Assembly (NCBI GenBank): GCA_963773695.1 | Contig: CAVZCE010000007.1 | Location: 71,325 to 135,324, forward strand | Direction of reading: 5' to 3' | Source: an uncultured Chloroflexia bacterium | GTDB lineage: Bacteria; Chloroflexota; Limnocylindria; QHBO01 | Length of the DNA stretch: 64,000 bases | Shown here: piece by piece, positions 47,466 to 60,321 of the stretch | Position numbering within the stretch: position 1 is the stretch's first letter | Layout: each line of letters begins with the position of its first letter | The notes under the pieces: model-generated | The model's input: only the letters and a program-made list of their open reading frames with translations | The model's database searches: none | Told to the model about the DNA's origin: nothing | Translations under genes and position numbers: made by a program

Positions 47466-47542
<77 letters not shown>

Positions 47543-48939: not shown

Positions 48940-50190
48940 CTAGTCGGCCTTGCGGCGGAGGAAGCTGGGGATGTCGAGGTCGGTCTCGCCGTACGACGGG
49001 CGCTCGAGGCTGGGACGCACCGGGAGCGGCTGCCGCTCGCTGACGCGCGACTCCCGCGGCTCCGCCTGGGACGGCCGCGCAAACGGCGACTCCGTCCCCA
49101 TCTGCTCCTCGAGTGCCGCTCGCTCGGAGCGCTCGCGCTCGATCTCGGCGAGGATCTCTCGGCTCCGCTCGTCGAGGGACGTCTCCATCCCCCTCGAGGC
49201 CTCGGCCGCCGCCTGGCGCCCGGCCTGCTTGACGGGCTTCGCGGCGTCGAAGCCGGTTGCGATGACGGTCACCTTGACCTCGTCCCGCATCCGGTCGTCG
49301 ATCACGGTGCCGAAGATGATGTTTGCCTCCGGATCGGCCGCCTCCTTGATCACCTCGGCCGCCTCGTTCACCTCGAAGAGGCCGAGGTCGCTGCCGCCGG
49401 TGACGTTGAAGAGGATGCCGCGGGCACCCTGGATGTTCACCTCGAGGAGCGGGCTCATGACGGCCGCGCGGGCGGCCTCGACGGCCCGGTTCTCGCCGGT
49501 TGCGGTGCCGATGCCCATCATCGAGCTGCCGGCGTCGCGCATGATCGTCTTGACGTCGGCGAAGTCGAGGTTGATGAGGCCCGGAACGGTGATCAGGTCG
49601 CTGATCCCCTGCACGCCCTGGCGCAGGACGTCGTCCACCACCCGGAACGCGTCGAGGATGGAGGTCTTCTTGTCGACCACCTCGCGCAGCCGGTCATTCG
49701 GGATGGTGATCAGGGTGTCGACCTTCTCCTTGAGCTGCTCGCTGTACTGCTCGGCCACGAGCTTGCGGCGGACACCCTCGAAGCTGAACGGCTTGGTGAT
49801 GACGCCAACGGTGAGGGCGCCGAGGTCCTTGGCGATCTCGGCGATGACCGGAGCTGCGCCCGACCCGGTGCCACCGCCCATGCCGGCGGTGATGAAGATC
49901 ATGTCCGCGTCCTTGAGCGCTTCGTAGATCTTCTCCGAGTCCTCCTCCGCCGCGCGCTGCCCGATGATCGGGTCCGCGCCCGCGCCGAGGCCGCGGGTGA
50001 GCTTGTCTCCCACGCGGATCTTATGGGGCGCATCGCTCTGGAGGAGGGCCTGCGCGTCGGTGTTCACCGCGATGAACTCGACGCCCATCATCTCGGCGCG
50101 GATCATCCGGTTCACGGCGTTCGAGCCGCCGCCGCCGACGCCGATGACCTTGATCAATGCGAAGTGTTCTGCGTCCGAACGGAGCGGCAT
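48940..50190 (-). CDS. ftsZ: cell-division GTPase FtsZ
   Basis: 416 aa; tubulin signature GGGTGSG; C-terminal conserved peptide DIPSFLRRK. Confidence 0.95.
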
Positions 50191-50387
50191 CTTCCGGGTT
50201 CTCCTGCGCGGTATGGTGGCATGAACCCGTCTCGCGCGGGTTTGACCGATTCTACCGGCCCGCCGACGCTGCCGCTGGCGATTTTTCCACAGGTCCTCCC
50301 GAAGTTATCCACACCCGCGCCGGTCGGCGGTGGACGAGCGCAGCGCCTCTCCACAGGCTGTCGAGGCGACAGGCGAAGGGCGGCTGC

Positions 50388-53300
50388 TCAGGGTGTCGTG
50401 TCGGACGCTGCACCATCCCCGCCCGCCGAGCGGATCGGGAGCCGAACCGTGAAGGTGGTGCCCTCGCCGGGCTGCGAGTCGACCGAGATCGTTCCCTCGT
50501 GCGCCTCCGCGATGGATCGCGCAATGAAGAGGCCGAGCCCCAACCCTTCGGTTGGGCCCGTCGCGTCGCCCGTGGCGCCGGGTGCCCAGAGGGCCTCCGC
50601 GAGGCCCGGCGGAAGCCCGGGTCCGTGGTCGCTGACGCTGATCTCCGCCGTCCCGCGGCGACGGGCGACCCGCACGTCAATCGTCGGCGAGCTCGACGCG
50701 TGGCGAATGGCGTTCGAGATCAGGTTGAGCACGACCTGCTGGAGACGGTCCGAATCGGCGGCGAGGCGAATGGGACGTGACGGCCGATGCAGGACGATCT
50801 CCTGCCTGCCGGCGAGCGGCCGTGACATGACGACCGCCTCCTCCACGACGTCCACCAGGTCGACCTCCCGGAAGCTGAAGCGCAGCCGTCCGCTCCGCAG
50901 CCGGTTCGCATCGAACAGGTCCGACACGAGCGAGGAGAAGCGCTGGACCTGCGAGAGCGCACGCTCCGCATAGCGGTGCGACTTGCCGCGCCGGCTGCCG
51001 CGAAGCTCGCGCTCGAGGAGCTCCAGGTAGGCGGTCACCCCGGTGAGCGGGCGTGCGCAGCTCGTGGCTGAGCATGGCCACGAACTCGTCCTGCAGATGC
51101 TGCAGGCTGGTTGCGGTGACGTCGCGGATGACCGTCACCGCCCCGCCGGCGGGATCGTCGTCGAGGGCACGCCCGCGGGCCTCGTACCAGTGGCGCTCGC
51201 CCGAGGCCTCGGTGCCGGTGAAGCGCACGAGGAAGGTTCCCTCGCGCACCGGCAGCCGCCATGGCGCCCGATCCGGCGGGATCTCCTCCCCCGCCTCGTC
51301 CTCCAGCCGCACCTCGACGGCGGAGCCGAAGGTTCTGTCGAAGACACCGTTCGACAGGACCGGCGCTCCGGTCGGGTCGGTGACGACCACCGCATCGGCC
51401 ATGGACAGGAGGACGCCTTCGAGGCGCGCCCGCTCCGATTCGCTCAGCTCCCGCTGGTGCTCCACCGAGATGGCCAGGTCCTGCAGCTCGGTGCTGCGAG
51501 CCTCCAGGTCGTCGTTCGTGGTGTTGAGCTCCTCCACCGTGGCCTGCAGCTCCTCGTTGAGGGTCTCCAGCTCCTCGTTCGTCGCCTGCAGCTCCTCGTT
51601 GAGGGTCTCGACCTCCTCGGTTGCCGACTGGACCTCCTCGTTGGAGACGACGAGGTCGTCGTTCTGGCTCCTGAGGTCGGCGTTCACCATCGTCAGCTCG
51701 GCATTCGCCTCGCGCAGCCGGCGCGCGGCCTCGGTCATGCGCCTGATCTGCACCGCGAGCCGCTCGGCACGATCCGTCTGGGAGGATGACGCCTGCCGCA
51801 GCCCGCTAAGGTCGGCGTGCTCTCGGGTCACGTCGCGCACGAGGATGGCGACCGTCTCGGCGGTGCTCGTCCCGTCTCCCTGGCGGTAGCAGGTCACCTC
51901 GAGGGACATCAGCTCGCCGCTCGTGCTGTCGGCGACGGGGATGTCCCACATGCGACGCGCGGGCTCACCGCGAAACGCGTCGTCGATCTCGCGTCGCAGC
52001 TCGTTGTTCGGCACGCCCTCCACGAGGTGGACGAGGTCCTGCCCGATGGCCGCGCCGTGGACCCCCAGCAGGTTGCGGGCGGCGGTGTTGATGAGGGCGA
52101 TGTCGTACTTGCGGTCCACCACCACGATGCCCACCGGCAGCTGCATCACGATGCGATCCGCTCGCGCCGCGTGCGTCCGCGCCCGGTCGAGCTCGGCCGC
52201 CCCCCGGCTGGGGGCGATCCCGCGCGCCAGGGAGGCACGTGGCGTGGTGGGCGGCGGCAGGACCGTCATTGGTCGGAGCGGCTCACTGCCCATCCGGCCG
52301 GACGGTCGGCCCACGCGCGTCCCCCGCCGGCGGTAGATCTTCAGGCGGGGGTCCGCCAGGACGAAGGCATCGGCGAGCGGAGTGGTCGTCTCCGACTTGC
52401 CCAGGACGAGGTAGCCGCCATCCCGGAGGGCGAAGGCGAAGAGCTGCAGGGCCCGTCGCTGCAGCTCCGCGGTGAAGTAGATCAGGACGTTCCGGCAGAC
52501 CGTGAGGTCGATGCGCGGGAACGGCGCGCGCTGCGCCAGATCGTGCTGGCCGAAGGCGATGAGCGTCCGGAGTGCGGGGGCTACCTCGTACTGGCCGTCG
52601 CGCTCGAGGAAGTGGCGCTGGCGCAGCGCCTCGGGCAGCCGCGCGAGGGCCGCGGCGGGATAGATGCCGCGCCGGGCAAACGCGATCGCCTCCCCGTCGA
52701 CGTCGGTGGCGAAGATCCGCACGCGCAGATCTCCGCCGCCGGCCTCGCGTGCCTCCGTGGCCACGATCGCCAGCGAGTACGCCTCCTCGCCCGTCGCACA
52801 GCCGGCCGACCAGATGCGGACCTCGCCGCTGTGCTCGCCGGCGTGCGCGAAGAGCTGGGGAAGGAGCTGGGCGCGGAGGTGCTCGTAGAGGTCGGGGTCC
52901 CGGAAGAACTCCGTGACGTTGATGAGGAAGCTGTTCGCCAGCCGCTGCAGCTCCTCCGGGTGGCCGTGCGCGTAGCGGACGTACTCCCGTAATCCATCCT
53001 GGCCGGTCGCGACGATGCGGCGCTGGAGGCGTCGCAGCACCGTTGGCCGCTTGTACTGTGCGAAGTCGATTCCGGTGCTCTCGCGAACCGCCTCCAGGAA
53101 CGTGGTGAGGACTCCCTCCTCGTCGGAGCGCCGCGGCACGAACGTCCCGGCGAGGAGATCCTGCAGGAGGGGGCCGATCGCCTTAAGGTCGGCCACGATG
53201 TCAACGGTTGTCGGCGAGAGCGAGAGCGGCATGGCGGGGTAGCTCGCCGTCTCGGGATTCTGGATCACCACCGTTCCGCCGACCGCCTTGACGTGGCGGG

Positions 53301-53751
53301 CTCCCGCGGCGCCATCGGATCCTGCGCCGGTGAGGATGACGGCGATCAGCCCCTCGCCGTAGGCTTCGGCGGCGGAGTCCAGGGCTCCGTCGACCGACGG
53401 CCGCGGACTCGTCCTCGGCGCATCGCCGGGGCCCTGACGCACCCTCCGGGCACGAATCTCGTGGTCGCCGATGACGACCTCGCGGTCGGCGGGGATGACG
53501 AAGATGACCCCCGGATCGAGCCGCTCGCGGGCGGCGACGATCCTGATCGGAAGCCGGGTGCGACGCTGGAGGATCTGCGCAAGGTGGCTCTCGCGCCGCG
53601 GATCGAGGTGCTGGACGACGACGATCGGCGCCCGAAAGTCGAGGGGCAGCGTCGATACGAGCTCGCCGAGTGCATCGATTCCACCCGCCGAGGAACCGAT
53701 GACGACGAGGTGCTCGACGTCGTCCTGATCAGTCGATGAGGAAAGATTCAT
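50388..53751 (-). CDS. CheB methylesterase / CheR methyltransferase / PAS / coiled-coil / histidine kinase hybrid; reading frame broken by an apparent 1-nt insertion near 51048
   Basis: Frame A (53751 down to about 51040): CheB catalytic domain without REC (VVIGSSAGGIDAL...), CheR (FFRDP...SAGCATGEEAYSLA), PAS, NEEL heptad repeats, then H-box SHELRTP; frame B (51038..50388): the rest of HisKA plus HATPase_c (MTAYLELLE...GLGLGLFIARSIAEAHEGTISVDSQPGEGTTFTV). Deleting the base at 51048 restores SHELRTPLTGVTAYLELLE. Confidence 0.7.
51519..51654 (-). repeat. tandem roughly 42-nt coding repeats giving NEEL(Q/E)xxNEEL heptads in the CheBR-HK hybrid
   Basis: Direct repeats of ctcctcgttgagggtctc(c/g)a(g/c)ctcctcg...gcctgcag encode ...ETLNEELQATNEELETLNEELQATVEELNTTNDDLE... 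Confidence 0.5.
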
Positions 53752-53823
53752 GCCACCCGCCTCCGCCCGTGTTCCCCGTCCGCGCGGCATGGTCGCATTC
53801 TTGCACACGCCCGCACGGCTGCA

Positions 53824-54816
53824 ATGGAACAGCCATCCGCCGCGGGGCGGGTCGTCGTCGTGGGGGGATCTGCCGGCTCGATCGAGCCGCTCAGGACGAT
53901 CCTCGGCGGACTCCCGCCGGACTTCCCGGCAGCGCTCCTCGTCGTCGTCCACGGCTCGTCGGGGACCGGCTCGCTGCCGCGCGTCCTGGCGACCGCCGGG
54001 TCCCTCCCGGCCGAGTTCGCCGCCGACGGTACGGCCATCCGTCCGGGTCGCGTCTTCGTGGGAGTCCCGGACCGACACCTGATCCTCCAGGACGGCGTCA
54101 TGCGTCTCAGTCCCGGGGCGCGCGTGAACCACGCCCGGCCGGCGGTTGACCCGCTCTTCCAGAGCGCCGCCCTGGCGCACGGTCCGGGGGTCATCGGCGT
54201 CGTGCTCTCCGGGAGCCTCGACGACGGGAGCGCGGGGCTTGCGGCGATCAGGCGACACGGGGGCATCGCGATCGTCCAGGACCCCGACGAAGCGACCTTC
54301 TCGGGAATGCCGCGCTCCGCCGCGGTCCACGCGGACCCCGCCCACGTCCTGCCGGCCGGCGAGATCCCCGACCTCCTCGTGCGGATCGTCTCGGCGGCCC
54401 CGACCGACCGCGACGGGGCCCTCGCCTTCCGTTGCCGGATCGGGCACAGCTACACGGCACGCCATTTGCTGGACGCACAGGGCGACGAGGTGGAGAATGG
54501 TCTCTGGCAGGCGTTTCGGGCGCTCGAGGAGCAGGCCGAATTGGCACGCACCTTGGGGAACACCGCCAGGATCGAGGGCCGTACGAGCGCGGCGAATCGG
54601 TTCGACGAGCAGGAACGCGTTGCACGGAAACGGGCCGAGATGATCCGAGCGATCCTTGAACAGGCCGCGTGCGTTGCCGCCGCGGCATCCCGCGACCTCC
54701 GGCAGGGAGGGAATGGCGAATGGCACCTGACGATCGCGAGGGCGCAGTGCCGGCCGCGCGGCTCGTCGTCGTGGACGACGACCAGGCGACCCTCGACCTC
54801 ATGCACGAGATCCTGA
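53824..54816 (+). CDS. CheB-type protein-glutamate methylesterase catalytic domain, stand-alone (no receiver domain), with a C-terminal helical extension
   Basis: 330-aa ORF; GGSAGS...VVVHGS...RPAVDPLFQSAA...VLSGSLDDGSAG...GGIAIVQDP matches the CheB_methylest fold; 3' end uncertain because it overlaps the next gene by about 97 nt. Confidence 0.7.
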   Translation: MEQPSAAGRVVVVGGSAGSIEPLRTILGGLPPDFPAALLVVVHGSSGTGSLPRVLATAGSLPAEFAADGTAIRPGRVFVGVPDRHLILQDGVMRLSPGARVNHARPAVDPLFQSAALAHGPGVIGVVLSGSLDDGSAGLAAIRRHGGIAIVQDPDEATFSGMPRSAAVHADPAHVLPAGEIPDLLVRIVSAAPTDRDGALAFRCRIGHSYTARHLLDAQGDEVENGLWQAFRALEEQAELARTLGNTARIEGRTSAANRFDEQERVARKRAEMIRAILEQAACVAAAASRDLRQGGNGEWHLTIARAQCRPRGSSSWTTTRRPSTSCTRS

Positions 54817-55217
54817 GCGGGGATGGCTACGACGTCCGCTGCTTGCCGTCGGTGTCGGCGGACCTCCGCGAGATCGTCGCCGCCGCGCCCCATCTGCTGA
54901 TCGTGGACCTGCTGCTGAGCGACGAGGGCCGGGACCTGTCGGGATGGGACCTGGTACGCCTCGTCAAGTCGCATCGCGCGCTCACCCGTGTCCAGATCCT
55001 GGTCGTCTCCGCGGACTACCCGACCCTGCGCAGCCACATCGCGGAGGCGGCGGAGATGGACGGCGTGCGGCTCCTGACCAAGCCGTTCTCTCTCGACAGC
55101 CTCTCGGTGCTCGTCCGCGATGCACTGCGCGAGGGAGGGTGGCTCGAGCCCGAGCCGGCGCCGCTGGTCGCGCGGATCCCGCCCCCGCCGCCTCCGCGCT
55201 CCAGGCGGGCATCGTGA
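54720..55217 (+). CDS. single-domain response regulator (CheY-like receiver only)
   Basis: 165 aa; LVVVDDDQATLDLMHEILSGDGYDV...LLIVDLLL(S/D)...KP, a receiver-domain pattern with the phospho-acceptor Asp in LIVDLLL. Confidence 0.75.
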   Translation: MAPDDREGAVPAARLVVVDDDQATLDLMHEILSGDGYDVRCLPSVSADLREIVAAAPHLLIVDLLLSDEGRDLSGWDLVRLVKSHRALTRVQILVVSADYPTLRSHIAEAAEMDGVRLLTKPFSLDSLSVLVRDALREGGWLEPEPAPLVARIPPPPPPRSRRAS

Positions 55218-55594
55218 ACCGGCGGTCGCAGGCCAGGGCTGTCCGGGCGCTCATCGTGGAGCAGCGCCGGGTGACCCTCCGAACCCGGACGATCAGCGTC
55301 ACCCTGGTCTCCGCGCTCGACGACTATGCCAGGCAGACCGCCGCGGCGCAGCCGGACGACGAGGCGCAGCTCCACCTGCGGCGCCTGTGGTGCGAACGCG
55401 CCCTGCAGATGCTGCAGGACGTGCGCGCCAGCAGCATGCGTGCCCGAGAGGTGGCGCGGACCGTCGCGGCGGCGATCGACGCGCGGGGCGATGTCGTCGA
55501 CCTGAGCGAGCTGGAGGACGCGAGCCGCGAGGCGGACGTCTCGGTCGAGCGCGCGGAGAAGACCGCGCAGGAGTGGCTCCGGCTGGTCAGCTGA
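55214..55594 (+). CDS. hypothetical alpha-helical protein, translationally coupled to the response regulator (GTGA overlap)
   Basis: 126 aa from GTG at 55214; no recognisable domain; ends 26 nt before the convergent ftsA stop. Confidence 0.4.
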   Translation: MNRRSQARAVRALIVEQRRVTLRTRTISVTLVSALDDYARQTAAAQPDDEAQLHLRRLWCERALQMLQDVRASSMRAREVARTVAAAIDARGDVVDLSELEDASREADVSVERAEKTAQEWLRLVS

Positions 55595-55620
55595 CCGAGC
55601 CGGGACGGGTCGGCGAGGGG

Positions 55621-56859
55621 TCAGCCGGGGAAGAGACCCCGGAACCAGTCCACGACGCGGCCGACCCCCGAACCCAGCGACGGTCCCGGGGTGTAGCCGA
55701 TCGGCTCGTCGCCGAGGTGCTCGGCGCCCCAGAGCAGCAGACCGATGGGGGTCGAGAAGGCGGGATTCGAGAGCTGGTCCATCAGCCCTCCCACGCCCTG
55801 GGGCGACCCGATGCGCACCGGCATGTTCAGGACCTCCCGAGCGAGCTCGGCGGCTCCGGCAAGGCGCGCGCCACCGCCGGTGAGCACCGCGCCGGCGGGG
55901 AGCATACCCGCGTGGCCGGAGCGCTTCACCTCCTCCGCGATGAGCGAGTAGATCTCCCCCATGCGCGCCTCGATCACCTCCGACAGGCGCCGGCGCTGGA
56001 TCGTCTGCCCGGCCTCTTCGCCCAGGACCGCCACGCTGAGCAGCTCCTCCGGCTGGACGTCCGCGAGGTTGGCGGTCCCGTGCTTGATCTTGATCTCCTC
56101 GGCGAGGTTCAGGCTCGTGCGCAGGCCGATCGCCACGTCATTCGTGACGTTGATCCCGCCGACCGGCAGGACCGCGGAATGGTAGATGGCGCCATCGACG
56201 AAGATCGCGATGTCCGTGGTCCCGCCGCCGATATCGGCCACGAGGACCCCCAGGTCCTTCTCCGTGTCGGTGAGGACCGCCTCGGCCGCGGCCAGCGAGC
56301 CGATCACCAGCTCGTCGATCTGGACGCTCGCGCTGGTGATGCACTTCGTCAGGTTCTGCACCGACGTCGCGGCGCCGGCGACGATGTGGGTCTCCACCTC
56401 GAGGCGCACGGCGCTCATCCCCAGCGGATCCTTGATCCCGTCCTGCCCGTCGACGATGAAGCCGCGCGGGATGACGTGGAGCAGCTCCCGGTTCGAGGGG
56501 ACCTGGATGGCCTTGGCGGCATCGGTCGCGCGCGCGACATCCTCGCGGCTCACCTCGCGCTTGTGCCCGGAGACCGCGACCACGCCCCGGCTGTTCTGGC
56601 TCGTGATGTGGCTCCCGCCCACGCTGACGAAGGCGGAGCTGATCTTGTAGCCGGAGAGGCGCTCGGCCTTCTCGATGCTCTGGGCGACCGAGTTCACGGT
56701 CTGGTCGATGTTGGCGACCATGCCCTTCTTCATCCCGACCGACGGACCGATGCCGTAGCCGATGATGTTGATGTCGCCGGTGCGGCCGACCTCGCCGATG
56801 AGCGTCGTCACCTTGGTCGTGCCGGCGTCGATGCCGACGAGGACCGTTTCCCTGTCCAA
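55621..56859 (-). CDS. ftsA: cell-division protein FtsA (actin-like ATPase)
   Basis: 412 aa; MDRETVLVGIDAGTTKV..., DIGGGTTDIAIF, GGGARL motifs. Confidence 0.9.
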   Translation of the reverse strand: MDRETVLVGIDAGTTKVTTLIGEVGRTGDINIIGYGIGPSVGMKKGMVANIDQTVNSVAQSIEKAERLSGYKISSAFVSVGGSHITSQNSRGVVAVSGHKREVSREDVARATDAAKAIQVPSNRELLHVIPRGFIVDGQDGIKDPLGMSAVRLEVETHIVAGAATSVQNLTKCITSASVQIDELVIGSLAAAEAVLTDTEKDLGVLVADIGGGTTDIAIFVDGAIYHSAVLPVGGINVTNDVAIGLRTSLNLAEEIKIKHGTANLADVQPEELLSVAVLGEEAGQTIQRRRLSEVIEARMGEIYSLIAEEVKRSGHAGMLPAGAVLTGGGARLAGAAELAREVLNMPVRIGSPQGVGGLMDQLSNPAFSTPIGLLLWGAEHLGDEPIGYTPGPSLGSGVGRVVDWFRGLFPG

Positions 56860-56906
56860 GCTGCCTCCTGATCGCGCGTCCCGAGGGCGCTAGAGATGAT
56901 TCGACC

Positions 56907-57230
56907 TTACAGGAAGTGGCGCCGGATCAGCGCCACGTTTTGGAAGATGCGCAGCCCGAAGGCGAAGAGGGCGACCAGGTACAGGTCGATCCCCAGACGA
57001 TCCCCCACGAACGTCAGCAGGACCGCGACAAACGCATTCGTCACGAAGCCGGAGAGGAAGACCCGGTTGTCGTAGTGGGCATCGAGCTCGGCCCGCACCG
57101 CCCCCAGCACGGAGTCGAGCCCGGCCAGGATCCCGACAGCGCTGTAGCGCGCCAGGTCGGGACTGACGTTGACGCCAAAGATGAGCCCGAGTGCGACGCC
57201 GACCGCAAGGCCGACCAAAGGAAGCCACAT
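56907..57230 (-). CDS. sbp: small basic membrane protein (DUF1290, Sbp/YlxX-like) between ftsQ and ftsA
   Basis: 107 aa, two TM helices; position and size match the Firmicute sbp gene. Confidence 0.5.
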   Translation of the reverse strand: MWLPLVGLAVGVALGLIFGVNVSPDLARYSAVGILAGLDSVLGAVRAELDAHYDNRVFLSGFVTNAFVAVLLTFVGDRLGIDLYLVALFAFGLRIFQNVALIRRHFL

Positions 57231-57275
57231 CAGGGACGGTACCGATAACCGCAGGATGGGGACCGCGGGCCGACC

Positions 57276-58232
57276 TCAGCATGTGCCCTCGCCGCCCCGG
57301 CCGTTCGGCCGCCAATATACCTTCCCCGGGTTGCGGGCATCCAGCCAGCCGACCGAGCTCTCGCGCTCGTTCGCGAAGAGCGTCCGCACCGCCGCGACCT
57401 GGTCCGCGATCCGGGCGGCGCGCGCCTGCGCGTCGCCGGCCTCGAGCTCGTAGGAACCGAAGACCGCGGTCCAGGTGCCCGACGGCCGCGGCCGCAGGAG
57501 GTACCCGCAGACGTCGTCGATGCTCACGCCCACCGAGCGTGCGCTCGAGCCCAGCGCGGCCGGCACGATGGCCCGCAGCTCCAGCGCGGTCGCCAGGGCG
57601 TCGGCGGGGATGCGGTCGCCCGCCGCGATCGCCAGCGACGCGCCCCGCTCGTCCACGATGCCGGGCAGGCTCGCCAGCGACTTCGGGAGCGGGCCCGACA
57701 GCGGCTCGACGCCGATGACGGTCCCGTCCGCGGCGACGACGAGGTGCGCCGCGCGGGTGGTCCACACGAACGCCGGGGCCTTCTCCGCGAGCTGGACGGA
57801 CAGGCCGCTCGGGAAGCGCGTCTCGACCCGGGCCGAGGCGACCGCGGGGAGCGCGCTCAGCCGCTCGGCGACCGCCCCGGCGTCGACGGCCAGCAGGCTC
57901 GTGCCGCGCAGCGGATCGAGGAGCGCCCCGATGCGCTGGTCGGACGTGTAGTGCGCGCCGGTCCAGGCGACGGTGGAGACACGCAGCCACGGGCCGTCGA
58001 CGAGCATCAGGAGCGCGGCCGCCAGGCCCACGGCGAGGAGGGACGCGAGGATTCGACCGCCGGTCGTTCCGCCCCGCAGGCGGGGGACGCGCAGGTGTGG
58101 TCCGCGCCGGCGGGCATGGGGGCCGCTCCCCCGCCGGGGGCGCGCGGCCGGCGGGCGGCTCCTCGGGGGACGTGCCCGGTCGGGAACGGCCGGGGCTGCT
58201 CCTCGCGCAGTCGGGGCGCGCTTCACCTTCAC
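57276..58232 (-). CDS. ftsQ: cell-division protein FtsQ/DivIB (POTRA domain)
   Basis: About 318 aa from GTG at 58230-58232 (overlaps the ddl stop); basic N-terminus, one TM helix, POTRA and FtsQ-type domain; the longer track ORF is antisense/overlap artefact. Confidence 0.75.
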   Translation of the reverse strand: MKVKRAPTARGAAPAVPDRARPPRSRPPAARPRRGSGPHARRRGPHLRVPRLRGGTTGGRILASLLAVGLAAALLMLVDGPWLRVSTVAWTGAHYTSDQRIGALLDPLRGTSLLAVDAGAVAERLSALPAVASARVETRFPSGLSVQLAEKAPAFVWTTRAAHLVVAADGTVIGVEPLSGPLPKSLASLPGIVDERGASLAIAAGDRIPADALATALELRAIVPAALGSSARSVGVSIDDVCGYLLRPRPSGTWTAVFGSYELEAGDAQARAARIADQVAAVRTLFANERESSVGWLDARNPGKVYWRPNGRGGEGTC

Positions 58233-59386
58233 GGCTCGCGCTCCTCGCCGGCGCGGTCGCGCGCCTCCTCGGCGCTCTCCAGGCCCAGCTCCACGAGGCG
58301 GGCGATGAGCTCCCCGAAGGAGAGGCCGGCCAGCTGCGCCTGCTTCGGGTACATGCTCGTCTCGGTGAATCCCGGCAGGGTGTTCATCTCGCTGATGTAC
58401 AGGTCGCCATCGGCCAGGAGGAAGTCGACGCGCGCCAGACCCGCCGCGTCGACGGCACGGTAGGCCGACAGCGCCAGCTCGCGGACCCGCGCGGCCAGCA
58501 GCGGGTCCAGGTCCGCGCGCGGGATGACATCGGCCAGCCCGTCCACGTACTTCGCCTCGTAGTCGTACCACTCGTGGTGGCTGCGGACCTCGCCCGGCTC
58601 GAAGGCGACCGGATCGTCGTTCCCGAGGACGCCGCACTCGAGCTCGCGGGGATGCTCAAGGTACCGCTCCACGATCACCTTGCTGTCGAACCGGAACGCC
58701 TCGTCGAGCGCGTCCGGCAGCTCGCTCGACGCGCGGACGAGGGTCATCCCCACGCTGCTGCCGAGGCGCGCCGGCTTGACGACGCACCGCTCCCCGACCG
58801 CCGCCAGCGCGTCGCGCAGGACCCGCTCCGGGGCGCGCCGCCAGGTCCCGCGCCGGAACCAGGTGGAGTCCACGACCGGCAGGCCGTGCCCGCGCATGAG
58901 GTCCTTGAAGACGACCTTGTCCATCGCGACCGCGCTCGCCAGCACCCCCGCGCCGGTGTACGGAATGCCTGCCATTTCCAGGAACCCCTGGAGGGTCCCG
59001 TCCTCTCCGAACGGGCCGTGGACGACGAGGAACGCGATGTCGATCGCCTCTGCCAGCGAGTGCAGCGCCTGGCGCGAGTCGAGGGCGCTCGCGTCGCGGC
59101 CCGCCGGCACCGGGAGGCCGGCGTGCTCCCGGAGCCGGACCGCCTGCGTCGTCGGCGTCTCCACGCCCAGGATCCCGGCCAGCGAGCCGTCGCCGAGCTC
59201 GGGGGCCGGCCCGGCCGGGAGATGCCAGCGACCGTCGCGGTCGATGAAGATCAGGTACGGATCGAAGCGCTCGCGGTCGATGGCGCGCAGCACGGCCTCC
59301 GCGGAGCTGATGCTCACCTCGTGCTCCGCCGAGCGACCCCCGGCGAAGATGCCGACCCGCAGCCGGCGCGGCGGTCCGTCTGCCAT
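58229..59386 (-). CDS. ddl: D-alanine--D-alanine ligase
   Basis: 385 aa; ATP-grasp fold; EVSISSAEAV and ISEMNTLPGFT motifs. Confidence 0.9.
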   Translation of the reverse strand: MADGPPRRLRVGIFAGGRSAEHEVSISSAEAVLRAIDRERFDPYLIFIDRDGRWHLPAGPAPELGDGSLAGILGVETPTTQAVRLREHAGLPVPAGRDASALDSRQALHSLAEAIDIAFLVVHGPFGEDGTLQGFLEMAGIPYTGAGVLASAVAMDKVVFKDLMRGHGLPVVDSTWFRRGTWRRAPERVLRDALAAVGERCVVKPARLGSSVGMTLVRASSELPDALDEAFRFDSKVIVERYLEHPRELECGVLGNDDPVAFEPGEVRSHHEWYDYEAKYVDGLADVIPRADLDPLLAARVRELALSAYRAVDAAGLARVDFLLADGDLYISEMNTLPGFTETSMYPKQAQLAGLSFGELIARLVELGLESAEEARDRAGEEREP

Positions 59387-60321
59387 CAGTCCGTCACCTC
59401 CACGCCGGCCCAGTCACCGACGAACTCGATCTCGTACTCGAGCGTCACGCCGAAGCGCTCCGCCACCACCCGGCGCACGTGGTCCCCCACCGCGCGCACG
59501 TCGGCCGCCGATCCGCCGCGGTCGCTCACGATGAAGTTGGCGTGCTTGGTCGAGACGCTGGCGGAGCCGATGCGAAACCCCTTGAGGCCGGCGGCGTCCG
59601 CGAGCCGCCCGGCGTAGTCCCCCGGCGGGTTGCGGAAGACGCTTCCGGCATTCTGGTCCGCGAGCGGCTGCGTCTCCAGGCGCTGCGCCTGGTGCGCGCC
59701 GACCTGCGCCGCGATGGCCCCGGGGTCGCCCTCCGCCAGGTCGAGCGCGGCGGAAAGGACGAGCTCGCCCGAATGCTTGAACCGGGACTCGCGATAGCCG
59801 AAGGCACAGTCCTCCGCCCCGAGCTCGATCGGCTCATCCGCGTCCGGCGCCCAGGCGGTCACGCTGCGAACCACGTCGCGCATCTCCCGCCCGTGCGCGC
59901 CGGCGTTCGCCCACACGGCTCCGCCGAGCGTGCCCGGGATGCTGATGCCGAACTCGAGGCCGGTCAGCCCGGCGCCCGCACAGCGCCTGACGAGCATGGC
60001 CATGGCGGCGCCGGCATCGGCGCGCAGGCGGGTCCCCTCGATCACCGCCCGGCGCGCCCGGTTCCGCACCACCAGCCCGCGCATGCCGGCATCGGCCACC
60101 ACCACGTCGCTCCCGTTCCCGAGGATGAAGACCGGGACCTCCGCGTCGCGCCCCAGGCGCAGCGCAGCGAGCAGGGTTGCGCCGTCCCGCGCCACCACGA
60201 GACGGTCGGCCGGGCCGCCGACCCGCAGGGTGGTGAGCGACGCCATCGGGACGTCGCGCTCCAGCACCATGCCGCGAGCGCCCGCGAGGGCATCGAGCCG
60301 GGAGAGATCGGGACGGCTCAT
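59386..60321 (-). CDS. murB: UDP-N-acetylenolpyruvoylglucosamine reductase
   Basis: 311 aa from ATG at 60319-60321; FAD-binding LGNGSD..., MurB C-terminal domain; ATGA overlap with ddl. Confidence 0.85.
   Translation of the reverse strand: MSRPDLSRLDALAGARGMVLERDVPMASLTTLRVGGPADRLVVARDGATLLAALRLGRDAEVPVFILGNGSDVVVADAGMRGLVVRNRARRAVIEGTRLRADAGAAMAMLVRRCAGAGLTGLEFGISIPGTLGGAVWANAGAHGREMRDVVRSVTAWAPDADEPIELGAEDCAFGYRESRFKHSGELVLSAALDLAEGDPGAIAAQVGAHQAQRLETQPLADQNAGSVFRNPPGDYAGRLADAAGLKGFRIGSASVSTKHANFIVSDRGGSAADVRAVGDHVRRVVAERFGVTLEYEIEFVGDWAGVEVTD

Follow-up and report, generated by a model that had tools for sequence, protein, structure and literature searches.

The locus at 50388-53751 of the window (the whole 64-kb stretch of DNA analysed here) codes for a soluble sensor histidine kinase that belongs to the CheB/CheR-fusion family (KEGG K13924 type), in which a receiver-less CheB methylesterase, a CheR methyltransferase, a disordered tether of about 40 residues, a PAS domain, a 142-residue helix, a second PAS domain, HisKA and HATPase_c follow one another in that order. 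A single extra C within the H-box severs the kinase core in this assembly. For the intact members of the family, the chances are about even that the long helix, which carries an Asn-Glu-Glu-Leu (NEEL) heptad array, is methylated and demethylated by the enzymes of its own polypeptide. The module is located between ftsA and ftsZ and has the following features:

50388..53751, minus strand: whole CheB-CheR-PAS-coil-PAS-HisKA-HATPase_c gene (domain searches, translation)
53170..53706, minus strand: receiver-less CheB methylesterase, residues 16-194 (Pfam CheB_methylest, 7e-47)
52369..53103, minus strand: CheR_N and CheR SAM-dependent methyltransferase, residues 217-461 (Pfam)
52171..52296, minus strand: predicted disordered tether from CheR to PAS1, residues 486-527 (AlphaFold pLDDT <50)
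51817..52143, minus strand: PAS domain 1, residues 537-645 (Pfam PAS_4, 7e-10; AlphaFold fold)
51403..51828, minus strand: continuous predicted helix of 142 amino acids from PAS1 to PAS2, residues 642-783 (AlphaFold/DSSP, pLDDT 70-87)
51505..51663, minus strand: NEEL heptad core, residues 697-749, a candidate methyl-accepting array (conservation, heptad statistics)
51118..51396, minus strand: PAS-like domain 2, residues ~786-878 (AlphaFold beta-sheet, 787-877)
51049..51051, minus strand: CCC run with one surplus C, inside the H-box between SHELRTP and LTGVTAYLE
50889..51093, minus strand: HisKA dimerisation and phospho-acceptor domain, residues 887-954, with H896, split by the frameshift (Pfam, 3e-16, repaired protein)
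50430..50756, minus strand: HATPase_c, residues 999-1107, out of frame with the start codon (Pfam, 6e-28)
53824..54816, plus strand: CheB2, a second receiver-less CheB, divergently transcribed (Pfam, 7.6e-45; AlphaFold)
~54720..55217, plus strand: single-domain receiver (REC), directly after CheB2 (Pfam Response_reg, 1.2e-10)

The gene starts at an ATG at 53751 with GGAGG upstream and stops at 50388-50390 on the minus strand, a span of 3364 nt that equals 3n+1 and therefore is not one open frame. Translation from 53751 passes through SHELRTP and then continues in the wrong frame to a stop at 50677, and the remainder of HisKA together with HATPase_c lies in a different frame (ORF 51038..50388); the public gene call (P0001) is the truncated product of 1024 amino acids. 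Dropping one C from the run at 51049-51051 gives SHELRTPLTGVTAYLE, which matches the orthologues, in which SHELRTPLTG is uninterrupted in a single frame, and yields a repaired protein of 1120 amino acids. A programmed +1 frameshift at CCC-G was considered and dropped because the orthologues are in frame. The initial annotation had placed all of the domains on one polypeptide; the domains that it listed are all there, the Pfam models CheB_methylest, CheR, CheR_N, PAS, HisKA and HATPase_c each finding a match in the repaired protein, but the sequence as deposited has no continuous reading frame from sensor to ATPase.

The assignment of the two modification enzymes is borne out by Pfam, PDB-sequence and Foldseek matches alike. 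The CheB domain (PF01339, 159.8 bits against a cut-off of 24; E 4e-25 to PDB 3sft, with Foldseek TM 0.87 and rmsd 2.3) has the catalytic triad S21 (in GSSAGG), H48 (in QH) and D146 (in GSDG), the spacing of which resembles that of S164/H190/D286 in Salmonella CheB; across 119 homologues H48 and D146 never vary, and S21 shows at least 90% conservation. No receiver precedes it, CheB beginning at residue 16 and Pfam giving zero Response_reg matches in the protein. Both CheR_N (PF03705, residues 217-260, 1e-13, 51 bits) and CheR (PF01739, residues 278-461, 3e-51, 174 bits) exceed their gathering cut-offs in the repaired protein, with PDB matches to 5xly/1af7 at E ~1e-30 and a fold recognised by Foldseek at TM 0.77-0.80 (0.80 to 1bc5). 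The SAM motif WSAGCATGEE (W314-E323) is invariant in the 119 homologues, as are the basic residues R240, R241 and R245 of the CheR N-domain helix, which would correspond to the basic helix through which Salmonella CheR contacts the acidic methylation helix. Because the triad and the SAM motif are invariant across these homologues, both enzymes are evidently under selection.

Pfam likewise supports the PAS, HisKA and HATPase_c assignments on the repaired protein, in which the H, N, G1 and G2 boxes of the kinase are all present. The second PAS-like domain, absent from the first list of domains, is also found in homologues with a custom PAS2 HMM built here. The tether is the least conserved segment of the protein. 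With a pTM of 0.48, the domain arrangement in the AlphaFold model is uninformative as to docking of the helix on CheR or CheB.

CheB2 consists of a catalytic domain (residues 11-184) and a helical hairpin (residues 212-289) with no receiver domain of its own, and at 20 of 81 loci its gene neighbours that of the fusion protein. The receiver that follows it, with its start taken at the Met of MAPDD, has the DDD residues, the acceptor Asp in LLIVDLLL, the Ser and the Lys. Both genes had been overlooked in the initial annotation. Since a second methylesterase and a receiver are present at the locus, any model must include both.

With a frameshift in the kinase and half of the CheB2 zinc ribbon gone, the system may be dead in this genome. 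If the extra C is real, the gene would be a recent pseudogene that makes only a kinase-less CheB-CheR-PAS-coil-PAS product (1024 amino acids, with a junk tail) within a decaying module, which is a serious possibility though well short of a probable one. The deposited assembly itself carries the frameshift, and the public gene call gives the truncated product. CheB2 lacks the first CPxC knuckle of the zinc ribbon of its family in the alignment, an in-frame deletion of ~60 alignment columns that is not explicable by base-calling error, and its ORF runs ~97 nt past the receiver start. In the sister JGI metagenome contig that offers the nearest context (L001), the receiver is frameshifted, and the identities of the module with its counterpart there are 66% and 51%, in contrast with 90-91% for the flanking FtsZ and FtsA. 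The part of the fusion gene downstream of the frameshift, however, shows no decay: its GC3 is high, the H, N, G1 and G2 boxes are retained, and it resembles the orthologues (HisKA 79% identical, HATPase 50%) no less closely than intact ones resemble one another (72% and 42% for P0002 versus P0003). Single-base errors in C runs are a common assembly artefact in DNA of 72% GC, and the extra C could be one of them.

Between the two PAS domains, the NEEL core follows the pattern N(a)-E(b)-E(c)-L(d)-x-[A/T/S]-x. Its six EE pairs recur exactly every 7 residues (705/706 to 740/741), and NDDL heptads lie on its flanks; the heptad text quoted when the gene was first described is found at residues 715-745, and the DNA has a 21/42-nt periodicity at 51500-51643. 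Shuffling the residues of the coil 100,000 times never produced an EE run longer than four. No other segment of the protein is as conserved as this core (consensus fraction 0.90, versus 0.75-0.77 in the catalytic domains), and its 55 residues, the most conserved of all, have an entropy of 0.46 bits, versus 1.0-1.1 for CheB and CheR. E712/713, 719/720, 726, 733/734 and 740/741 show no variation among 119 sequences, and most of these glutamates stay invariant in a cross-phylum alignment of 20 sequences that are 28-67% identical. By heptad assignment the EE pairs occupy the b and c positions, which places them on a solvent-exposed face of the helix, while at least eight consecutive a positions are Asn, implying a polar, marginally stable core. 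Among 3503 heptads, N occupies position a in 54%, E occupies b in 60% and c in 70%, and L occupies d in 77%, with A, T or S at f.

The methylation-site consensus of E. coli is Glu-Glu-x-x-Ala-Ser/Thr with a spacing of 7 residues. The pattern EExx[ASTG][ASTG] is satisfied by 1138 of the 3503 heptads and, in this protein, at four of the six EE pairs (705, 719, 733 and 740). The resemblance to the EExxA(S/T) helices of chemoreceptors that had been proposed for the heptad region thus stands as a partial motif match with heptad-spaced EE pairs, but not as detectable homology: a profile of 20 diverse coils, searched against all PDB sequences, gave no significant chemoreceptor match, Tsr and Tm1143 appearing at E 0.06-0.1, level with generic and designed coiled coils, and the top match being the engineered EELKAIKEEL coil in 8tvi. 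Homology with chemoreceptors was accordingly ruled out, the search having returned only generic coiled coils, and since no profile match is significant, the likeness is one of motif and could be convergent or coincidental. Methylation sites in chemoreceptors are often encoded as Gln; in this array the Gln-for-Glu signature of CheB deamidation sites was not seen, the second Glu being replaced by Q in 2.5% of heptads versus D in 10.9%. Pfam coiled-coil matches to Phage_scaffold, HMMR_N and RasGAP_C lie under the cut-offs and were discarded as composition noise.

Homologues of the fusion protein number more than 7400 at E <1e-30, nearly all of ~1100 amino acids with an identical Pfam set, and at least 584 species-representative genomes carry relatives, among them members of the Chloroflexota, Myxococcota, Acidobacteriota, Proteobacteria, Planctomycetota, Bacteroidota and further phyla. 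Identity to the closest intact relative (P0002) is 66% across 100% of the length and lies at 48-60% for most of the others. Cultured hosts with an intact orthologue include Variovorax paradoxus NBRC 15149 (L077), Sorangium sp. (L006), Pedobacter cryophilus (L053), Jannaschia formosa (L046) and Nitrosovibrio sp. Nv4 (L075). Named homologues are called "CheB/CheR fusion protein" (KEGG K13924; in JGI, [quoted passage not shown]). What had been presented as an unusual giant hybrid is therefore one ordinary representative of a very large family that had already been annotated, identical to it in architecture, length and heptad array, and set apart by the H-box frameshift and, in this lineage, by its location between ftsA and ftsZ. 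The architecture itself has been seen before, and the family is known only as an annotation label: full-text literature yielded no functional study of it, only KEGG lists and one expression remark. Kinases bearing CheB and CheR were reportedly shown by Karniol and Vierstra in 2004 in connection with HWE kinases.

The array accompanies CheB-CheR in 71 of 71 evaluable full-length ORFs, which vary in C-terminal output and range from 850 to 2150 amino acids. A search with the coil only returned 7797 representative proteins, and among the matches listed all those longer than 840 amino acids begin with CheB-CheR, save two N-terminally truncated entries that begin with CheR. The short matches are mostly contig-end fragments (P0149, for example, begins at base 6 of its contig), and one internal gene (P0250, locus L082) encodes CheB-coil-PAS-HK without CheR, so that exclusivity of the array to CheB-CheR proteins is likely but not proven.

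A role in docking, or as a special helix for signalling, would account equally well for the extreme conservation of the NEEL core. The helix could be a conserved coil that serves only in signalling or dimerisation, or a surface onto which the CheB-CheR module or CheB2 docks, with the enzymes acting in trans on chemoreceptors or other proteins encoded elsewhere and the kinase part regulating or localising them. Such an arrangement appears unlikely, although it would accommodate both the missing homology to MCP methylation helices and the missing Gln-site signature; long PAS-to-DHp coiled coils are common in kinases, Foldseek matches include FixL and LOV-HK (PAS-helix-PAS), and several host genera found here (Variovorax, Sorangium and Alteromonas) are motile or equipped with chemosensory systems. 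A plain linker, however, is unlikely to exceed two enzyme domains in conservation or to retain invariant solvent-facing EE pairs across phyla, and the array is present with CheB-CheR whatever the output domain. The statement that no separate receptor is encoded nearby was upheld, tblastn with E. coli Tsr and CheW queries finding no MCP signalling domain or CheW in the 64-kb window; an MCP or CheW gene was found at none of 82 loci (81 related loci and the window), and the fusion protein has zero Pfam matches to PF00015 (MCPsignal). Trans action also sits poorly with a preprint on Phaeobacter, according to which the che genes and the chimeric CheB-CheR gene are not regulated together (10.1101/2025.03.24.645028).

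It is highly improbable that the Asn(a)/Leu(d) zipper with its Glu pairs itself senses a physical condition (pH, ions or temperature), with CheB and CheR otherwise employed or vestigial. The run of a-position Asn residues with its marginally stable polar core would suit such a sensor, and the dense carboxylates would be expected to confer pH and cation sensitivity, but the invariance of the CheB triad and the CheR SAM motif in 119 homologues, and the constant association of the array with CheB-CheR, argue against idle enzymes. Physical sensing is, besides, compatible with methylation and not exclusive of it.

Self-methylation withstood sequence and model tests that might have weakened it and gains real support from them, with the array as a candidate substrate only. 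Counted in its favour are the NEEL conservation peak, the invariance of the EE pairs across phyla at ~30% overall identity, the array in every full-length fusion recovered, the predicted tether, the lack of MCP or CheW genes at the 82 loci, the invariant R240/R241/R245 and the regulation of the Phaeobacter gene apart from the che genes. Counted against it are the frameshift in the kinase of this genome, the coil's lack of detectable homology with chemoreceptors, the near-absence of Gln-for-Glu, and the form of the predicted substrate, a single straight helix that would presumably make a parallel two-helix coil in the dimer, whereas the usual substrate of CheR and CheB is an antiparallel four-helix bundle. 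The centre of the array is predicted to lie ~125 A from PAS1 along the helix, a distance at which reach in cis by the 42-residue tether would be possible but stretched. Biochemical evidence on self-methylation was not found in the searchable literature.

In intact members, the NEEL helix would be the substrate of the fused enzymes, its invariant Glu-Glu pairs facing outward at b and c in a heptad array that has Asn at a and Leu at d. The tethered CheR would methylate the array glutamates with SAM, and the tethered CheB would hydrolyse the esters. Neutralisation of up to 12 charges per chain could alter the stability or register of the marginally stable, Asn-cored coiled coil, through which PAS1 would signal to PAS2 and the DHp, so that the methylation state would set kinase output; the kinase would gain a methylation memory like that of chemoreceptors with no MCP, CheA or CheW. 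CheB2, as an esterase with a helical hairpin, and the receiver might, speculatively, provide phosphorylation-dependent feedback in the manner of a split CheB. That the whole family consists of self-adapting kinases with a self-methylated NEEL array, with CheB2-hairpin and receiver supplying such feedback, falls somewhat short of an even chance.

The adaptation system of E. coli Tsr and Tar has the same two enzymes (folds at TM 0.8-0.87), and chemoreceptors resemble the fusion in having candidate Glu-Glu pairs at a spacing of 7 residues, with x-x-[A/S/T]-[S/T] after them. In E. coli receptors a C-terminal pentapeptide arm keeps the enzymes near their substrate; tethering is flexible in both systems, the fusion having a covalent linker in place of the arm. 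The fusion differs in having no MCPsignal hairpin, CheA or CheW, a HisKA-type kinase output in the same chain, a CheB without a receiver, at least six consecutive candidate sites of which almost none is Gln-encoded, a coil with no homology to MCPs detectable by coil profile, and a candidate substrate predicted to be a single long helix or parallel coil instead of a four-helix bundle. The C-terminal two thirds have the same plan as the kinases FixL, LOV-HK and PhoR/WalK, of which Foldseek finds FixL and LOV-HK; the NCBIfam PhoR and PnpS models align at residues 736-1105 (PhoR at 774-1104), both short of their cut-offs. Unlike these PAS-helix-PAS kinases, the fusion has a far longer inter-PAS helix (142 residues) with a near-invariant Asn/Glu-Glu/Leu repeat, and two modification enzymes at its N-terminus. 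CheR-TPR fusions such as FrzF also join CheR to an extra domain and serve pathways beyond flagellar taxis, but belong to che-type clusters and methylate a separate MCP (FrzCD), whereas here CheB, sensor and kinase are in one chain with no MCP nearby (PMC3447774).

The gene in this window is an ordinary, probably defective member of its family that adds little by itself; its worth lies in drawing attention to a large family that is uncharacterised. Sensory adaptation has its textbook mechanism in reversible glutamate methylation, which is not known outside the chemoreceptors that signal through CheA. Were the NEEL helix methylated, memory and gain control would be built into ordinary histidine kinases of hundreds of species, chemotaxis-style methylation memory would operate without MCP, CheA or CheW in thousands of proteins across many phyla, and the family would offer a compact, soluble, single-chain model for the tuning of a coiled coil by methylation.

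The sensor kinase gene and its two neighbours, a second REC-less CheB gene (CheB2) and a receiver gene, form a module that interrupts a division and cell-wall cluster, with ftsA on one side and ftsZ on the other (48940-59413; order ddl, ftsQ-like POTRA gene, DUF1290, ftsA, module, ftsZ, YGGT). The features are:

48940-50190: ftsZ, flanking the three-gene module
50388-53751 (-): CheB-CheR-PAS-helix-PAS-HisKA-HATPase_c kinase gene, start ATG at 53751 (MNLSSS...), GGAGG a few bases upstream
51049-51051 (-): CCC run with an extra C, splitting the kinase gene inside the H-box
53824-54816 (+): CheB2 (CheB_methylest, 7.6e-45), divergent from the kinase start
54669-55217 (+): single-domain receiver (1.2e-10), directly after CheB2, likely start Met at 54720
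55621-56859: ftsA, flanking the three-gene module

The same ftsA/module/ftsZ arrangement is found only in L001, a JGI metagenome contig with the closest context; in the other 80 related loci ftsA and ftsZ are not near the fusion gene. The window and L001 share 90-91% identity in FtsZ and FtsA, but only 66% in the kinase and only 51% in CheB2. A tRNA-Val (CAC) gene (47466-47542, -), the window's only RNA gene by ARAGORN and Rfam, lies between an MFS transporter gene and the YGGT gene.

The initial annotation took the kinase for one polypeptide, but its span of 3364 nt is 3n+1. The frame from 53751 encodes CheB, CheR, PAS and a long Glu-rich stretch as far as ...FVAMLSHELRTP, then Arg/Pro/Ala-rich nonsense up to a stop at 50677, and the remaining kinase core is in a second ORF (51038..50388, beginning VTAYLELLERE...). 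Removal of one C from the CCC run at the junction (ACG CCC GCT CAC CGG GGT GAC C) restores T-P-L-T-G-V-T-A-Y-L-E, a region that is continuous in a single frame in every orthologue, and yields a protein of 1120 aa; the public gene call on the 208-kb contig (NCBI, ENA) is a truncated 1024-aa product (P0001). A mechanical ORF list gives a 1349-aa ORF (50677..54726, -) spanning the kinase start; its 325 upstream codons (53752-54726, -) were rejected as a stop-free artefact of the window's G+C content of approximately 72%, overlapping CheB2 on the opposite strand. The out-of-frame kinase part resembles its orthologues as closely as intact orthologues resemble one another, and the H, N, G1 and G2 boxes are all kept with no decay downstream of the extra C; thus, the frameshift either is an assembly error in the C run or arose by mutation very recently. 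An in-frame deletion in CheB2 and the long overlap between its ORF and the receiver gene lean slightly toward a decaying module. The receiver gene of L001 (5805-6716) is also fragmented by a frameshift, its N-terminal third being in a different frame, which shows that such defects occur in this lineage or in these assemblies.

Pfam recovered on the repaired protein all of the domains that had been proposed from the sequence (REC-less CheB, CheR, PAS and HisKA-HATPase_c), and found neither a receiver nor an MCPsignal domain:

residues 16-194: CheB_methylest (7e-47)
residues 217-260: CheR_N (1e-13)
residues 278-461: CheR (3e-51)
residues 537-645: PAS_4 (7e-10)
residues 887-954: HisKA (3e-16)
residues 999-1107: HATPase_c (6e-28)

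No transmembrane segment was found in the repaired kinase (maximum 19-residue hydropathy 1.35). The CheB-CheR half matches solved structures of CheR (5xly and 1af7, E ~1e-30) and of CheB catalytic domains (3sft and 1chd), and parts of an AlphaFold model of residues 1-897 (119 homologues as input, mean pLDDT 84, pTM only 0.48) gave TM 0.77-0.80 in superposition with CheR and 0.81-0.87 with CheB. A putative catalytic triad (S21/H48/D146), the SAM motif WSAGCATGEE and basic residues of the CheR N-domain (R240/R241/R245) are invariant or nearly so among the 119 homologues. The window gene belongs to the CheB/CheR-fusion sensor kinase family; it is interrupted by a frameshift, and its catalytic motifs are intact. 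A second PAS-like domain ahead of HisKA is pointed to by NCBIfam PhoR and PnpS models, which align over residues 736-1105 with scores below their cut-offs, and AlphaFold predicts a PAS-like beta-sheet domain at 787-877, followed by the start of the DHp helix. As modelled, the kinase has a disordered tether (residues 486-527, linking CheR to the first PAS domain) and, between its two PAS domains, a very long Asn/Glu-Glu/Leu helix.

This helix is predicted to be unbroken over 142 residues (642-783, pLDDT 70-87; window 51403-51828, -), in strict heptads L-x-x-x-N-x-x over about twelve turns. In its core (697-749) each heptad reads N-E-E-L-x-[A/T/S]-x, with Asn at position a, Leu at d and the Glu pair at the outward positions b and c. 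The six Glu-Glu pairs are spaced exactly seven residues apart, a run longer than four being absent from 100,000 shuffles, and a 21/42-nt periodicity in the DNA matches the array. In the window helix and in the family alignment, Asn occupies the core a position in at least eight consecutive heptads (an Asn zipper); stable coiled coils do not usually carry such a series, which suggests that this coil is deliberately weak and switchable. Classical chemoreceptor methylation sites of E. coli and Salmonella have the consensus Glu-Glu-x-x-Ala-Ser/Thr and lie seven residues apart. The likeness to chemoreceptor helices (EExxA(S/T)xEE) claimed in the initial annotation extends to the form of this consensus, with four pairs fitting EExx[ASTG][ASTG] (EEVQSA, EELQAT twice, and EELNTT), but not to homology: a coil profile searched against the PDB matched no chemoreceptor significantly.

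The Glu pairs may, at about even chances, serve as substrate for the tethered enzymes CheR and CheB, and would then tune kinase output. The main rival explanation casts the helix as a special element for signalling or docking, with other proteins as the targets of the enzymes. It fits the missing chemoreceptor homology, and also the missing Gln sites: Gln stands at the second Glu in only 2.5% of 3503 heptads, a lower share than that of Asp. This rival accounts less well for the solvent-facing Glu pairs being the protein's most conserved residues. Conservation among the 119 homologues (48-66% identity) peaks in the NEEL core (706-760; mean consensus fraction 0.90, entropy 0.46 bits); elsewhere the fraction is 0.75-0.77 in CheB/CheR, 0.56-0.61 in the PAS domains, 0.61-0.65 in the kinase core and 0.58-0.63 in the flanks of the same helix; E712, E713, E719, E720, E726, E733, E734, E740 and E741 are invariant. 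Most pairs also stay unchanged when 20 coils of distant phyla, 28-67% identical to the window, are compared, and the heptad profile of 336 sequences (3503 heptads) is N 54% at a, E 60% at b, E 70% at c, L 77% at d, and A/T/S at f.

The signalling or docking explanation also accounts less well for the constant company of the Glu pairs and both enzymes. CheB-CheR followed by the array was found in 71 of 71 evaluable ORFs of a genome scan, across total lengths of 850 to 2150 aa and differing outputs. The scan used two search patterns, one taken from the coil itself; coils of distant loci read EELETSKEE, so these loci could be found by the CheR pattern alone. A search with the coil only (91 residues) gave 7797 representative proteins at E <=1e-3, and the hits longer than 840 aa among those listed begin with CheB-CheR, except the N-terminally truncated, CheR-first P0122 and P0217. 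Shorter hits are mostly fragments with the first domain cut at residue 1 (P0149 begins at base 6 of its own contig). P0250 (L082 1356-3644), internal to its contig, has CheB, NEEL coil, PAS, HisKA and HATPase_c without CheR or the first PAS domain, which shows that the array can accompany the esterase alone.

A search of 5.8 billion proteins gave at least 7461 homologues at E <=1e-30 among 8000 candidates scored, nearly all of the 120 listed having approximately 1100 aa and the same Pfam set, under source names such as "CheR family methyltransferase", "chemotaxis protein CheB" and "CheB/CheR fusion protein". A scan of one genome per species confirmed at least 584 of at least 600 matches, those listed including Chloroflexota, Sorangium, Eremiobacterota, Acidobacteriota, Rubrobacteraceae, alpha-, beta- and gammaproteobacteria, Planctomycetota, Bacteroidota, Verrucomicrobiota, Nitrospirota and Gemmatimonadota. 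With so many named homologues in so many phyla, the architecture is ordinary and already annotated; in the literature, the family's KEGG number, K13924, was found in eleven papers, in each of them only within gene lists.

CheB2 has at least 1327 relatives of approximately 340 aa, all simply named CheB, with a CPxC...C-x3-H (CCCH) zinc ribbon and a conserved helical tail covered by no Pfam model. In the window protein about 60 alignment columns, the first CPxC knuckle among them, are missing; the protein has a confidently predicted helical hairpin (212-250 and 254-289, AlphaFold). The CheB2 ORF runs approximately 97 nt past the likely receiver start, and its last 40 or so residues resemble out-of-frame read-through, so another indel is possible at this junction. 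Of 81 loci, 20, drawn from several phyla, have a CheB2 tail adjoining the fusion gene, which makes CheB2 a recurrent partner. In seven loci (L020, L022, L025, L030, L033, L057 and L060; hosts Chloroflexia, Pyrinomonadaceae, Chitinophaga and Trinickia), the CheB2-type and fusion genes share a strand instead of diverging, with the CheB2-type gene immediately upstream; the two genes stay paired, but in varying orientation.

No tblastn match to the Tsr signalling domain or CheW was found in the 81 related loci (2-21 kb, most approximately 14 kb) or in the window, where the absence of a separate receptor had been correctly noted and the CheB2 and receiver genes overlooked. The locus holds a partner esterase and a receiver, without chemoreceptor genes nearby. 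According to a preprint on Phaeobacter, the chimeric CheB-CheR gene did not track the che genes in CtrA-relay mutants (10.1101/2025.03.24.645028).

If the Glu pairs are the substrate, the tethered CheR and CheB would act on the inter-PAS helix, and neutralisation of Glu charge would adjust a coiled coil of marginal stability and hence kinase output, the outcome being adaptation without MCP, CheA or CheW. More speculatively, CheB2 might dock via its hairpin under control of the phosphorylated receiver. The window itself offers an ordinary finding; the hypothesis, which concerns a large family yet to be characterised, is concrete and cheap to test.
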